Assembly: GCA_964551435.1 (NCBI GenBank)
Contig: CAZKBS010000001.1
Location: forward strand, 143,565-207,564
DNA length: 64,000 nt
Reading direction: 5' to 3'
DNA from: an uncultured Micavibrio sp.
GTDB lineage: Bacteria > Pseudomonadota > Alphaproteobacteria > Micavibrionales > UBA2020
Shown here in pieces: positions 2,445 to 5,279 of the stretch. The position numbers and the translations under genes were made by a program. How positions within the stretch are numbered: the stretch's first letter is position 1; the number at the start of each line of letters is the position of its first letter. The notes below the pieces were generated by a model. The model had not been told where the DNA came from. It searched no databases and worked only from the letters and a program-made list of their open reading frames with translations.

Positions 2445-5279
2445 ATGGCGTATGATAACGAAGACAACTACCACGGCATGCGATTTTTGCTGGATGCCCA
2501 GAACTCCCGCCAGTTTGGCGTGCGTTACGACCATGGCAAAGTATCGAAGCCGATCCATGTCTTCGCCGAGGACGACCGTGAAGCCGGGTTCAAGCCGAAC
2601 GAAACCGTTTTCGCCTTCGATGACGAAGCCAAAATTACCACCGACAACGGCAAGGCCCGCCTGTCGACGGTTGCCTATCAGATCATCACCAATGAATCCG
2701 CCGAGCCGAAAAAGCTGAAAGAGCTGAGCGTCGATTACGACGTCACCTTCCGCGGCGATGGCGCCGGCAACTTCAAAGTTGTCTATAAACTGTCCCCGAC
2801 ATCGCGCGATGCGCTGGCGGAGCGTGGTTTTGATGCCAGCTTCCCGCAGGAATTCAGCGAAGCCATCGACCCCCGCGGCCTGAGCCGTAACGGCATGACC
2901 AATCAGGTCGTTGTCGATCGTTCGACCCTGAGTAATCTGTCGTTCCCGCCGCAGCACACGACCAACAAGGCACATCTGGCGCGCTACGCGCTCGAAGGCA
3001 ACGATCTCGACAGCGCTGTTATGCCGCGCCCCGAAGATATCGTCAGCCAGCGCCCGCAGGCAAAGGACAATGCACCGCAGAAGCCCGTGCAGCGGCCGAC
3101 CACGGCGCCCGCCAACCAGAACCCAGGCGAACCCGCGCCGCAAAAACCTGCGCCGCAGTTCAACCGCCAGACCACGTTCCGTCCGCCGGTTGTGGACAAG
3201 CCGAAAATCTCTGACAGCGCGATCGAAGCTGTTATCAAGATGTTCTGCGAAGACCTCAGCGAAAAGGCCGCCCGCGGCCAGCTGGACCCTGTTGTCGGCC
3301 GTAACAACGAAACTCAGGCTGCCATCAAGGTCATGTCCCAGCGCAAACAGTCCAGCCTGTGCTTCACGGGTGAGGCGGGCGTTGGTAAAACCGCGATGTT
3401 CTCCGCTGTTGCACAATATATCCACGATGGCGATCAAGTTCCCGACTCCATGCGCGGTGCACGCGTTCTGCAGCTCGACCTGCAGGCGATGAACGCCGGC
3501 GCGAAATACCGCGGTGAATTCGAAGCCAAGCTGAAACCGCTGATCGAAGGTCTGAAAGAGCGTCAGGGCTACCTGAACGGCCGCAAGGTCATTCTGGCCA
3601 TCGACGAAATCCACTCGCAGCTGACGTCCGGTAAAGCCGAAGGCGGCACCGACGCCGGTAACATGATGAAACCCTTCCTGACATCCAAGGGTATCTCCGT
3701 CATGGGCGCGACCACGGATGACGAATACAAAAAACACATCGAGAAAGACCCCGCGCTGGCCCGCCGCTTCGAAGCGATGCGCCTCGAGGAGCCGAAAAAA
3801 GACGACACCCTGCACATCGTGCAGAAACTGTGGCCGCTGATCCGCGACCACCACGGTATCGCCAAAGACCCCAGCGCCGAGGAATTCCTGTATCTGGTCA
3901 ACATGACCAACCGCTACGCGCCGAACGAAAGCCAGCCGTCCAAGGCCGAAAAAGCCCTCGACATGGCCGCCGCTTCTGCCAAATTCCGCGGTTCGGATAC
4001 CATCGAGCGCGAGGACTTCCTCTCCGCGATCTCGAAAATGTCCAAACTGTCGGCTGACTTCCTGGGCCAGAACGACCGCGACCGTTTCCTGAAACTGGAA
4101 GCATCGCTGAACGAACAGGTTCTGGGCCAGCCGGGCATCAGCAAGGTCGCAAGCGGCCTGATCGGCTCGCGCGTCGGCCTGAACGACCCGAACAAGCCCA
4201 TGGGCTGCTTCGTTCTGCAAGGTCCGAGCGGCACGGGTAAAACCGAGCTTTGCAAAGCCCTCGCCCGTACGCTGTTCGGCGACGAGAAGGCGCTGATCAA
4301 ACTCGACATGTCCGAGTACATGGAAAAGCACAGCGTCGCACGCCTGATCGGTGCCCCTCCGGGTTATGTCGGTTTCGACAGCGCACAACCTGCCCTGACC
4401 GAAGAAATCCGCCAGCGCCCCTATTCCATCCTGCTTTTGGATGAAATCGAAAAAGCGCACCCCGACGTGTTCAACGTCCTGCTGCCCGTACTCAACGACG
4501 GCGAGATGAAGGACAACCAGGGCAAAACCGTCAAGTTCAACAACGTCATCGTTGTTATGACGACCAACCTCGGTGCGAAAGAAGCGATGGCAGCCCTGCA
4601 AGGTGGCGGCAGCAGCAACGGTCTGGCACTCGGTGGCAGCGCTCTTGAAAAAACGCCGCAGGAACAGCAGGAAATCCTCGCCAAAATCTACGAACGCGAG
4701 CGTAAATCCTTCTTCCGTCCCGAGATGGTCAACCGTATCGAGATGCTGGGTGGTTTCATCACCTTCATCCCGCTGGCGCAGGAAGTCATCACCAAGCTGG
4801 TCAACCGCGAGCTGAAAAACGTCAACAGCCGTCTGTCCGACCCGACCGGTGCAAACTTCGGCGGCGTGACGCTGGAAGTTTCCGCAGACGTCAAACAGCA
4901 ACTGGCGCAGGAAGGCTACAAGCCGGATATGGGCGCGCGTCCGCTGGAAAAAGTGGTCCGCGAGAAACTCGGCAACCCGCTGGCTTTCTGGCTGCTGGAA
5001 AACGAAGACAAGCTGAAGACCTTCGCTGCGGCGAATGGCGGCGCGAAAATCTACATCGAAAAAATCGGCGCGGATTTCAACCCCGTCATCAAAGCACCGA
5101 AAGAAGAACTGGTGGCCCTGCCTGCTGCAAAAGCAGACAAGAAAACCGCCGCGGACTTCAACGCTTCGGCAGATGCCGCTGCGCCGGCCAAAAAGCCCCG
5201 CAAACCCGCCAACGACGAAGCTGGCAAAACGCCGGCCCCGCGCAAGCGCAAGTCGGGTGGCAATGATTTCAACGCCTGA
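2445..5279 (+). CDS. ClpA/ClpB-family double-AAA+ ATPase with novel N-terminal domain, no long M-domain, and basic C-terminal tail
   Basis: Strong RBS AAGGAGG. NBD1 has Walker A GEAGVGKT, Walker B ILAIDEIH and pore loop GAKYRGEFE. NBD2 has Walker A GPSGTGKT, Walker B ILLLDEIEKA, pore loop GAPPGYVGF and sensor-2 GARPL. The first 270 aa or so have no Clp-N motifs and end in a Pro/Gln-rich linker. Tail is KKPRKPANDEAGKTPAPRKRKSGGNDFNA. Confidence 0.9.
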   Translation: MAYDNEDNYHGMRFLLDAQNSRQFGVRYDHGKVSKPIHVFAEDDREAGFKPNETVFAFDDEAKITTDNGKARLSTVAYQIITNESAEPKKLKELSVDYDVTFRGDGAGNFKVVYKLSPTSRDALAERGFDASFPQEFSEAIDPRGLSRNGMTNQVVVDRSTLSNLSFPPQHTTNKAHLARYALEGNDLDSAVMPRPEDIVSQRPQAKDNAPQKPVQRPTTAPANQNPGEPAPQKPAPQFNRQTTFRPPVVDKPKISDSAIEAVIKMFCEDLSEKAARGQLDPVVGRNNETQAAIKVMSQRKQSSLCFTGEAGVGKTAMFSAVAQYIHDGDQVPDSMRGARVLQLDLQAMNAGAKYRGEFEAKLKPLIEGLKERQGYLNGRKVILAIDEIHSQLTSGKAEGGTDAGNMMKPFLTSKGISVMGATTDDEYKKHIEKDPALARRFEAMRLEEPKKDDTLHIVQKLWPLIRDHHGIAKDPSAEEFLYLVNMTNRYAPNESQPSKAEKALDMAAASAKFRGSDTIEREDFLSAISKMSKLSADFLGQNDRDRFLKLEASLNEQVLGQPGISKVASGLIGSRVGLNDPNKPMGCFVLQGPSGTGKTELCKALARTLFGDEKALIKLDMSEYMEKHSVARLIGAPPGYVGFDSAQPALTEEIRQRPYSILLLDEIEKAHPDVFNVLLPVLNDGEMKDNQGKTVKFNNVIVVMTTNLGAKEAMAALQGGGSSNGLALGGSALEKTPQEQQEILAKIYERERKSFFRPEMVNRIEMLGGFITFIPLAQEVITKLVNRELKNVNSRLSDPTGANFGGVTLEVSADVKQQLAQEGYKPDMGARPLEKVVREKLGNPLAFWLLENEDKLKTFAAANGGAKIYIEKIGADFNPVIKAPKEELVALPAAKADKKTAADFNASADAAAPAKKPRKPANDEAGKTPAPRKRKSGGNDFNA

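Follow-up and report, generated by a model that had tools for sequence, protein, structure and literature searches.

A lineage-specific third Clp/Hsp100 ATPase from a single family of uncultured alphaproteobacteria has a new N-terminal domain and usually lies close to Dot/Icm genes

As part of the analysis of a 64,000-nucleotide stretch of DNA from an uncultured Micavibrio sp. (the window; positions 143,565 to 207,564 of contig CAZKBS010000001.1, assembly GCA_964551435.1), we examined an intact open reading frame (ORF) at 2445-5279 on the forward strand, which starts with ATG and encodes a Clp/Hsp100-type protein of 944 amino acids. This protein is almost certainly the ATPase component of a third Clp/Hsp100 system that is peculiar to a single family of uncultured alphaproteobacteria. 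It represents a new Hsp100 subfamily on the ClpA side, which carries a new N-terminal domain (N-domain), forms a third paralogue, is restricted to one family and is usually encoded beside genes of a Dot/Icm type IVB secretion system (T4BSS). An earlier note, made from the sequence of the window, had called the protein an orphan unfoldase and had proposed two roles for it, namely an unfoldase specialised for an effector repertoire or a protein that is itself translocated. The word orphan has to be given up, because the protein falls in a conserved clade with 84 or more cluster representatives. The two roles are weighed below.

In its domains, motifs and fold, the protein is a class I Clp/Hsp100 ATPase, with two AAA+ modules. 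Pfam matches comprise AAA in the first nucleotide-binding domain (NBD1), AAA_lid_9, AAA_2 in the second (NBD2) and ClpB_D2-small. The Walker A and Walker B motifs of both NBDs, the two pore loops and the sensor-2 motif were all located (Table 1), and the core residues of the Walker and sensor-2 motifs are invariant among 29 homologues. The homologues also begin with MAY(D/E)NE, which supports the choice of start codon. The closest structural matches to the full-length AlphaFold model (predicted local distance difference test, pLDDT, 77) are ClpC/ClpP, ClpC1P1P2, ClpB and ClpAP complexes, with a template modelling (TM) score of ~0.8 over the AAA core, and the sequence matches in the PDB are ClpB, ClpC, ClpA and Hsp104. 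Four segments of the model are disordered (residues 187-250, 396-405, 722-734 and 887-944). A ClpA model (positions 158-716) aligns as one unbroken stretch to residues 254-847, so no middle domain (M-domain) is inserted, and the segment between the rings consists of short helices only, with no coiled coil. The earlier note had anticipated both the intact NBDs and the missing M-domain, and was right on each.

The N-domain is unlike that of any Hsp100 family we compared. A Pfam scan of the whole protein gave no match to Clp_N (PF02861), and residues 1-270 alone gave no Pfam match even at E<=10. An AlphaFold2 (AF2) model of residues 1-200, built on a 12-sequence alignment (pLDDT 84; predicted TM score 0.79), is mostly beta with three short helices and has no Foldseek match in the PDB (best E 0.12, TM 0.15) or in BFVD. 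GFP barrels head the PDB rows of such searches, and we regard them as noise (best E ~0.1, TM at most 0.25 over PDB and BFVD). Since the domain is beta-rich and without a match in Pfam, the PDB or BFVD, it is neither Clp_N nor ClpV-N. The earlier note had posited a novel N-domain of 270 residues followed by a Pro/Gln-rich linker. The novelty stands, since no known fold was matched, but the size does not: the folded part spans about 186 residues, and the ~69 residues that follow are the disordered linker itself (15 Pro and 8 Gln; pLDDT below 50 over residues 187-250), which differs in length and sequence between homologues. Within the folded part, the motifs YRFLxDAxNSRQY, NETVFAFDDE and FPPQH..A..AR are conserved.

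The N-domain is rare. A profile search across 1.84 billion proteins retrieved it in just 63 cluster representatives, and the matches include stand-alone proteins (N-domain, a domain of ~90 amino acids and a basic tail) as well as tandem doubles. These stand-alone and tandem copies occur mainly in one genus with larger genomes (loci L129, L130 (G010), L131 (G016), L132 (G021) and L133 (G013); proteins P0124-P0133 and P0143), and the ~90-residue C-terminal domain to which they are fused, along with a basic tail, has the conserved pattern ..DAQTLVEKKNLG..FNFE.RRV..LGG.P.PL. Several long repeat proteins (P0163, P0178-P0181) were discarded as carriers, as they look like chance beta-hairpin matches.

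About 84 full-length homologues (cluster representatives) have 44-98% identity over more than 90% coverage, and none has Clp_N. After this set the score falls sharply from 732 to ~460 bits, where ordinary ClpB and ClpC proteins begin. A search of contig records gave no entry for the window protein itself. We placed the clade in a tree (IQ-TREE, 562 columns, 69 sequences) whose references include ordinary ClpA, ClpB and ClpC genes of all phyla, taken from a contig search with generic AAA+ motifs that returned no member of the new family. The new clade is monophyletic (ultrafast bootstrap, UFBoot, 100), as are the ClpA, ClpB and ClpV clades (100 each). It sits beside the ClpA clade, not nested within it, and the split that unites the two has a UFBoot of 84, so that in the Hsp100 tree the new clade falls on the side of ClpA. 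ClpC references group with ClpB, apart from the new clade.

Membership in each established family was considered and rejected. The protein is not a ClpA: the double Clp_N repeat is absent, the score lies far below the NCBIfam cut-off (TIGR02639; 499 versus 993 bits), and the clades are separate. ClpB/Hsp104 is excluded by the missing M-domain, the presence of a ClpP-type loop, a score of 538 bits against a cut-off of 1232 (TIGR03346) and the separate ClpB clade. For ClpV/TssH, the score is 463 bits against 885 (TIGR03345), ClpV forms its own fully supported clade, and the neighbouring genes belong to a T4BSS and to the ankyrin-repeat (Ank) family; the source genome has no ClpV-level match, the sole match at the level of TIGR03345 being its ClpB. 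ClpC/ClpE was rejected in the absence of any PF02861 or PF02151 match, and because ClpC references cluster with ClpB. The source genome (2.47 Mb, 45 contigs) also holds a canonical ClpA and a canonical ClpB, and the new gene is thus an added third paralogue, not the conserved housekeeping ClpA or ClpB ortholog that would have counted against the earlier note.

The N-domain is present in 36 of 41 genomes of the protein's own GTDB family, versus none of 109 across seven sister families, and a survey with the AAA body agrees, except for a diverged form in a second family. These genomes are related and hence not independent samples, and gene calls beyond the window are crude, based on a filter of G+C at third codon positions (GC3). 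A few genomes within the family, such as G020 (97% complete), gave no match to the Clp ATPase. The diverged orthologues of the second family (L134:7614-10172 in G031 and L135:6997-9531 in G037) have 42-43% identity, an N-domain shortened to ~125 amino acids, the core motifs and an ANDN/basic tail, and lie away from T4BSS genes. One further protein, P0077, joins an N-terminal part of the new type to a ClpB-like C-terminus without the D2 loop or tail; it probably stems from a chimeric metagenome contig and was set aside. Literature searches that combined Micavibrio or Micavibrionales with type IV secretion, ankyrin or Clp returned no account of such a system.

The gene usually lies close to secretion genes. 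A dotD-dotC-dotB-icmT block lies at 137584-140702 of the same contig, ~3 kb before the start of the window, with 5.3 kb between the end of dotD, which is upstream, and the Clp gene (contig position 146009). Among 21 Clp-carrying genomes, 15, from six genera, have the Clp gene on the dotD contig at a distance of 2-8 kb from dotD, and across six genera the genes run in the order icmT-dotB-dotC-dotD-h147-h278-(Ank x2-5)-GNAT-Clp-DUF6782-HIT-DUF3592. Although the number of Ank genes between dotD and the Clp gene varies, the position of the Clp gene is constant; in G012 it directly abuts h278. The GNAT gene directly precedes the Clp gene in most related genomes, with 74-83% identity across genera. 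DotD itself has an order-wide range (40 of 41 genomes), and the dotD loci of sister families are without the Ank-GNAT-Clp array. Ank genes are numerous in both families that have the ATPase and an additional ClpP, ClpP2 (described below), and rare or absent in four other genomes checked. The statement in the earlier note that there is no ClpP, ClpS, type VI secretion system (T6SS) or DnaK partner in the window is literally true, but it misleads, with a Dot/Icm block just outside the window and ClpP2, a candidate partner, on another contig. The genes h147 (~150 amino acids) and h278 (~280 amino acids) always accompany dotD-dotC-dotB-icmT across families (loci L136-L143), with no Pfam match on record.

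The Clp protein ends in a disordered tail of ~58 residues (pLDDT ~32), in which the motif xND[N/D/E] is near-invariant. N923 and D924 show conservation of 90% or more, and a basic run follows. Tails of this xND-plus-basic type are found in ~80 of the 84 homologues. The earlier note's observation that the tail is common to effector-like proteins is borne out across the genome: basic Pro/Gly-rich ends occur in 101 of 2202 crude ORFs (4.6%), versus 0.87% of internal sequence windows, and the strict pattern [AVSTPG]ND[ND]+basic in 17 of 2202 ORFs versus 3 of 5166 internal windows, a ~13-fold enrichment at C-termini. The same type of tail is found on ClpP2, on the tagged PepN (M1) paralogue PepN-A and on Ank proteins. 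It also ends two further peptidases (M3 and M20), an acyl-CoA ligase, a FadB-like enzyme, an RNase_T-type exonuclease, an alpha/beta hydrolase and a TelA-like protein. Several carriers have an untagged paralogue in the same genome: the tagged/untagged pairs include PepN-A/PepN-B, FadD, M20, ClpP2/ClpP1 and Clp/ClpA. PepN-A orthologues occur in every one of the family's 24 genomes and in the two of the second family, and end in KKPTNDNA.K...KK.G in three genera, whereas PepN-B is order-wide and without the tail. Mere low-complexity sequence was rejected as the sole explanation of the tail, because ND is near-invariant and recurs on ClpP2 and PepN-A. From these patterns we infer that the tail may be a shared address label.

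The Clp tail shares composition and end motifs with the Ank proteins that flank the dot/icm genes, and no known signal model applies to it. The Ank tails of relatives end in [KR]..GG.F.L and the Clp tail in RKRKSGGNDFNA. In other genera, dotD-adjacent Ank proteins (L119-L126) have a sharper [KR]..GG(x)F[EKNQS]L ending with Phe at -3, and the Ank proteins of the source genome have ..GP.. or GGGGFTL at the matching site. The tagged PepN is encoded at 60905-63703 of contig C8 and the untagged one at 12705-15308 of contig C16; other tail-tagged enzymes of housekeeping type are at C12:24386, C8:2154, C18:28679, C1:361912 and C2:61470. In the window, tails also end the ORFs at 5466-5930(-), 13713-14486(-), 14596-15588(-), 20867-21631(-), 23268-24797(-) and 40098-40349(+), which belong to unrelated or unrecognised families, several with an upstream AND motif and most without a Pfam match.

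One of the tail carriers, ClpP2, is a candidate partner of the ATPase. It is encoded outside the window (contig C22, 21430-22524(-), 364 amino acids) in a tandem tig-clpP2-clpP1, and is a divergent extra ClpP in which the catalytic Ser, His and Asp are kept. It has an N-terminal extension of ~70 amino acids and a C-terminal one of ~110, which ends in ...SVSNDDVSAAAPAAKKAAKGAAPK. An [AS]ND[DN]+basic end was found in 11 of 12 retrieved ClpP2 genes, including those of the second family, where the ATPase is diverged. The C-terminal extension is present in 33 of 41 genomes of the family versus none of 109 others, the same clade-level range as that of the ATPase. We infer that the ATPase and ClpP2 may be partners.

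The region of the ATPase that would contact a ClpP is the loop of the second ring (D2). ClpA requires an IGL/F tripeptide to bind ClpP, and ClpB and Hsp104 are without it (PMC5540906). In the window protein, a flexible loop (pLDDT below 50 at residues 722-734) lies at the ClpA position, where SSNGLALGG aligns with PGMGFG of the genome's own ClpA, such that the equivalent of the IG(F/L) sought by the earlier note is LAL. Among 84 family members, about half have MGF, IGF or VGF, and the others LAL, MAL, GSF, ATF, MEL, MDF, IGI and so on. Because the loop is of ClpA type and roughly half of the members keep MGF, IGF or VGF, descent of the new Clp family from a ClpP-binding ancestor is likely; docking of the window protein on a ClpP today is uncertain.

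We tentatively favour the reading that the ATPase and ClpP2 form a second, tail-tagged Clp protease module tied to the T4BSS repertoire. The Clp hexamer would select clients through its new N-domain, thread them past the KYRGEF and GYVGF pore loops and pass them to a peptidase ring containing ClpP2. As part of this reading we also favour, although it is less likely than not, export of the ATPase, ClpP2 and the tagged peptidases through the T4BSS. The tail label would then route them to the secretion system, and the exported set would be an ATP-dependent, protein-destroying module in the target cell. Export would give the best account both of tagged copies that are retained next to untagged housekeeping enzymes and of a Clp gene placed within the Ank array. 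With regard to the two roles proposed in the earlier note, the new evidence on ClpP2 and PepN tilts the choice between effector unfoldase and translocated protein towards the latter, and a ClpP2-coupled protease is a candidate third option. In its most far-reaching form, which we consider unlikely, the unfoldase with tail-tagged ClpP2, M3 peptidase and PepN would be an injected proteolysis kit, exported by the Dot/Icm T4BSS into the cytoplasm of prey or host, powered by the victim's ATP and directed at targets chosen by the N-domain, with the xND[N/D]+basic tail as an alphaproteobacterial T4BSS export signal.

Several observations weigh against the favoured protease module and its export. The clpP2 gene does not adjoin the ATPase gene, and the co-distribution of the two is essentially one clade-level event and hence statistically weak. 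The ClpP-docking tripeptide is degenerate in the window protein (LAL) and in many relatives. ClpP2 does not have the Y-x-Y of ClpP1's DIYFYINSPGG, which we take to line the docking pocket of ClpP, and as a result classical docking on ClpP2 is doubtful. In G014 and G017 the Clp gene lies away from the T4BSS genes, and synteny within one family may reflect inherited gene order. The full-length AlphaFold model places the tail at no docking site. Some tail carriers (the FadB-like protein, the exonuclease and the M3 peptidase) are single-copy metabolic enzymes, for which an intracellular tag fits as well as an export signal. Finally, we know of no exported Hsp100 or ClpP.

These points leave room for other explanations. 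An unlikely one keeps the protease but places it entirely in the bacterial cytoplasm, where the ATPase with ClpP2/ClpP1 would regulate the level of the tagged repertoire (Ank proteins and enzyme paralogues), its acidic N-domain reading the tails as degrons or tethers, and the ATPase's and ClpP2's own tails would serve for tethering or self-limitation. Partnership with ClpP is the default for ClpA-like proteins, and the new clade is the sister of ClpA, with the D2 loop kept and MGF or IGF in about half of its members; ClpP2, moreover, matches the ATPase in distribution and tail. The charges are complementary (median net charge ~ -7 for the N-domain and ~ +3 for the tails), and single-copy metabolic enzymes with tails are presumably required inside the cell. 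Escherichia coli ClpA itself has a C-terminal autodegradation tag. However, a peptidase subunit with its own degron has no known precedent, and in the AlphaFold model the tail of the protein is not docked on its N-domain. Tagged duplicates beside untagged housekeeping copies suggest a different location and not mere turnover, and a cytoplasmic regulator leaves the position beside T4BSS genes unexplained. That position would be accounted for if the hexamer, by analogy with the ATPase of type III systems, docked at the Dot/Icm coupling complex, perhaps by its tail, and unfolded tail-bearing effectors without proteolysis. Type IV secretion system (T4SS) substrates must be unfolded, and reviews list the responsible unfoldase as an open question (PMC6362355, PMC10711112). 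The Clp protein keeps its place beside dotD-dotC-dotB-icmT and its identity between genera (58-65%) resembles the values for DotC and DotD and far exceeds those for its Ank neighbours. We nonetheless regard a secretion-coupled unfoldase as improbable. As the T4BSS is order-wide, while the ATPase is confined to one family plus the diverged form in a second, the secretion system works without it; a few genomes within the family, moreover, gave no ATPase match, and in the two genomes named above the ATPase gene is unlinked from the T4BSS. In addition, it bears the tail of the presumed substrates, and the identically tailed ClpP2 points to proteolysis.

A further account is an ordinary extra stress chaperone or ClpAP-type protease ATPase in which the novelty of the N-domain is incidental, the basic tail is of lineage-typical low complexity, and closeness to the T4BSS reflects inherited gene order that carries no functional meaning. 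Basic Lys/Ala/Pro tails are indeed also found on clearly housekeeping proteins (trigger factor and an 844-amino-acid protein), the conserved synteny takes in unrelated housekeeping genes (HIT, OsmC, DUF3592), and the Clp gene has its own promoter-like site and terminator. This account is nevertheless unlikely. Within an otherwise disordered and variable tail the ND dipeptide is conserved to the extent described above, the same short motif ends ClpP2 and PepN-A in several genera, its C-terminal enrichment is substantial, and the Clp gene holds its place despite the variable number of Ank copies.

Comparison with known systems helps to place the favoured protease module. ClpA, the ATPase of ClpAP (E. 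coli type, PDB 1ksf/6w1z), likewise has two directly joined AAA+ rings without an M-domain and a flexible D2 loop at the site of its ClpP-docking IGL/F, and its clade is the nearest one. It differs in having a helical Clp_N in place of the beta-rich N-domain; the new protein also has a long Pro/Gln linker, the xND[N/D]+basic tail and the tripeptide LAL. Because the N-domain has this new fold and is not Clp_N, a ClpS-type adaptor is unlikely for the new Clp. ClpC1-ClpP1P2 and other mixed-ring ClpP systems (Mycobacterium, Streptomyces, Listeria; PDB 8xon, 9if4), to which the full-length model is structurally closest (TM ~0.8 over the AAA core), also use two ClpP paralogues, here encoded in tandem, and a class I Hsp100 might dock on one face only. 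Unlike these systems, the new ATPase has no Clp_N, UVR or half M-domain, and ClpP2 is extended and tailed, while the partnership here is putative.

ClpV/TssH is an Hsp100 paralogue with a specialised N-domain that serves one secretion system and is encoded alongside it. It differs by its separate descent, its T6SS context and its want of a ClpP loop. HSP101 of Plasmodium (in the translocon PTEX; PDB 6e10/6e11), which was detected as a sequence relative, is a ClpB/Hsp100-type unfoldase that acts in export outside the producer's cytoplasm, and this example shows that Hsp100 motors can be relocated. However, HSP101 is eukaryotic, ClpB-like with an M-domain, and travels by the secretory pathway, whereas export of the new Clp is hypothetical. 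Dot/Icm effectors of Legionella and Coxiella have C-terminal translocation signals, and here a disordered tail is found on ~100 unrelated proteins, including Ank proteins encoded next to dot/icm genes, often with a hydrophobic residue near position -3. The Dot/Icm signals are Glu-rich, in contrast to the basic, Pro/Gly-rich xND[N/D] tails of this alphaproteobacterial lineage, in which transfer is hypothetical.

Whatever the outcome, a substrate-selecting domain of unrecognised fold is added to the Hsp100 toolbox, and a set of housekeeping-enzyme paralogues is united by a short linear motif, xND[N/D] with a basic run after it. The results point to a second Clp protease, which would consist of the tail-bearing ATPase and ClpP2, parallel to the housekeeping ClpAP, ClpXP and ClpB. 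An Hsp100 motor that is conserved beside Dot/Icm genes and bears the tail of the presumed effectors also makes the question of a T4SS unfoldase testable in a new lineage. If export were true, this would be the first bacterium that delivers an ATP-dependent protease; if the tails were degrons, they would belong to a new tag-and-reader proteolysis system.

Table 1. Positions in the window of the Clp gene, its parts and motifs, flanking signals and neighbouring genes.
Feature	Position (nt)	Strand	Evidence
Whole gene: class I Clp/Hsp100 ATPase of ClpA-side clade, 944 aa	2445..5279	+	ORF, Pfam, NCBIfam, tree
New beta-rich N-domain, residues 1-186	2445..3002	+	AF2 model, no Foldseek/Pfam match
Pro/Gln-rich disordered linker, residues 187-255	3003..3209	+	Low pLDDT, composition
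NBD1 and lid	3210..4064	+	Pfam, homologue alignment
NBD1 Walker A GEAGVGKT, residues 309-316	3369..3392	+	
NBD1 pore loop KYRGEF, residues 354-359	3504..3521	+	
NBD1 Walker B LAIDEIH, residues 384-390	3594..3614	+	
NBD2 and D2-small domain	4065..5102	+	Pfam, homologue alignment
NBD2 Walker A GPSGTGKT, residues 593-600	4221..4244	+	
NBD2 pore loop GYVGF, residues 640-644	4362..4376	+	
NBD2 Walker B LLLDEIEKAH, residues 663-672	4431..4460	+	
Gly-rich flexible D2 loop QGGGSSNGLALGGSA, at position of ClpP-docking IGL/MGF of ClpA	4599..4643	+	Alignment, pLDDT
Sensor-2 GARPL, residues 830-834	4932..4946	+	
Disordered C-terminal tail, residues 887-944	5103..5276	+	pLDDT, conservation
Tail motif PANDE	5205..5219	+	
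Basic end of tail, PRKRKSGGNDFNA	5238..5276	+	
Promoter-like site in the 415-nt upstream intergenic region	2134..2162	+	10/12 consensus positions; consensus match only
Intrinsic terminator-like hairpin and T-run, 34 nt past stop	5313..5344	+	9-bp stem, 7 GC pairs, then TCTTTTTTGT
Upstream neighbour: Ank protein, part of dotD-Clp array	183..1307	+	Pfam Ank_2, E 1e-20; synteny
Upstream neighbour: GNAT acetyltransferase	1439..2029	+	Pfam Acetyltransf_1
Downstream neighbour: 154-aa ORF with shared basic tail (..KPGRKNSGPGGPR), no Pfam match	5466..5930	-	Tail scan, Pfam
Downstream neighbour: 619-aa ORF with Pro/Gly/basic tail, no Pfam match	6040..7899	-	Tail scan, Pfam

Since a promoter-like site lies upstream of the Clp gene and a strong terminator hairpin downstream, the sequence suggests that the gene may be a monocistronic unit. 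The interval 2001-4000, which takes in the N-domain and linker and reaches into the first part of NBD1, has the lowest G+C content of the window (0.547 versus ~0.60) and a high AT skew.

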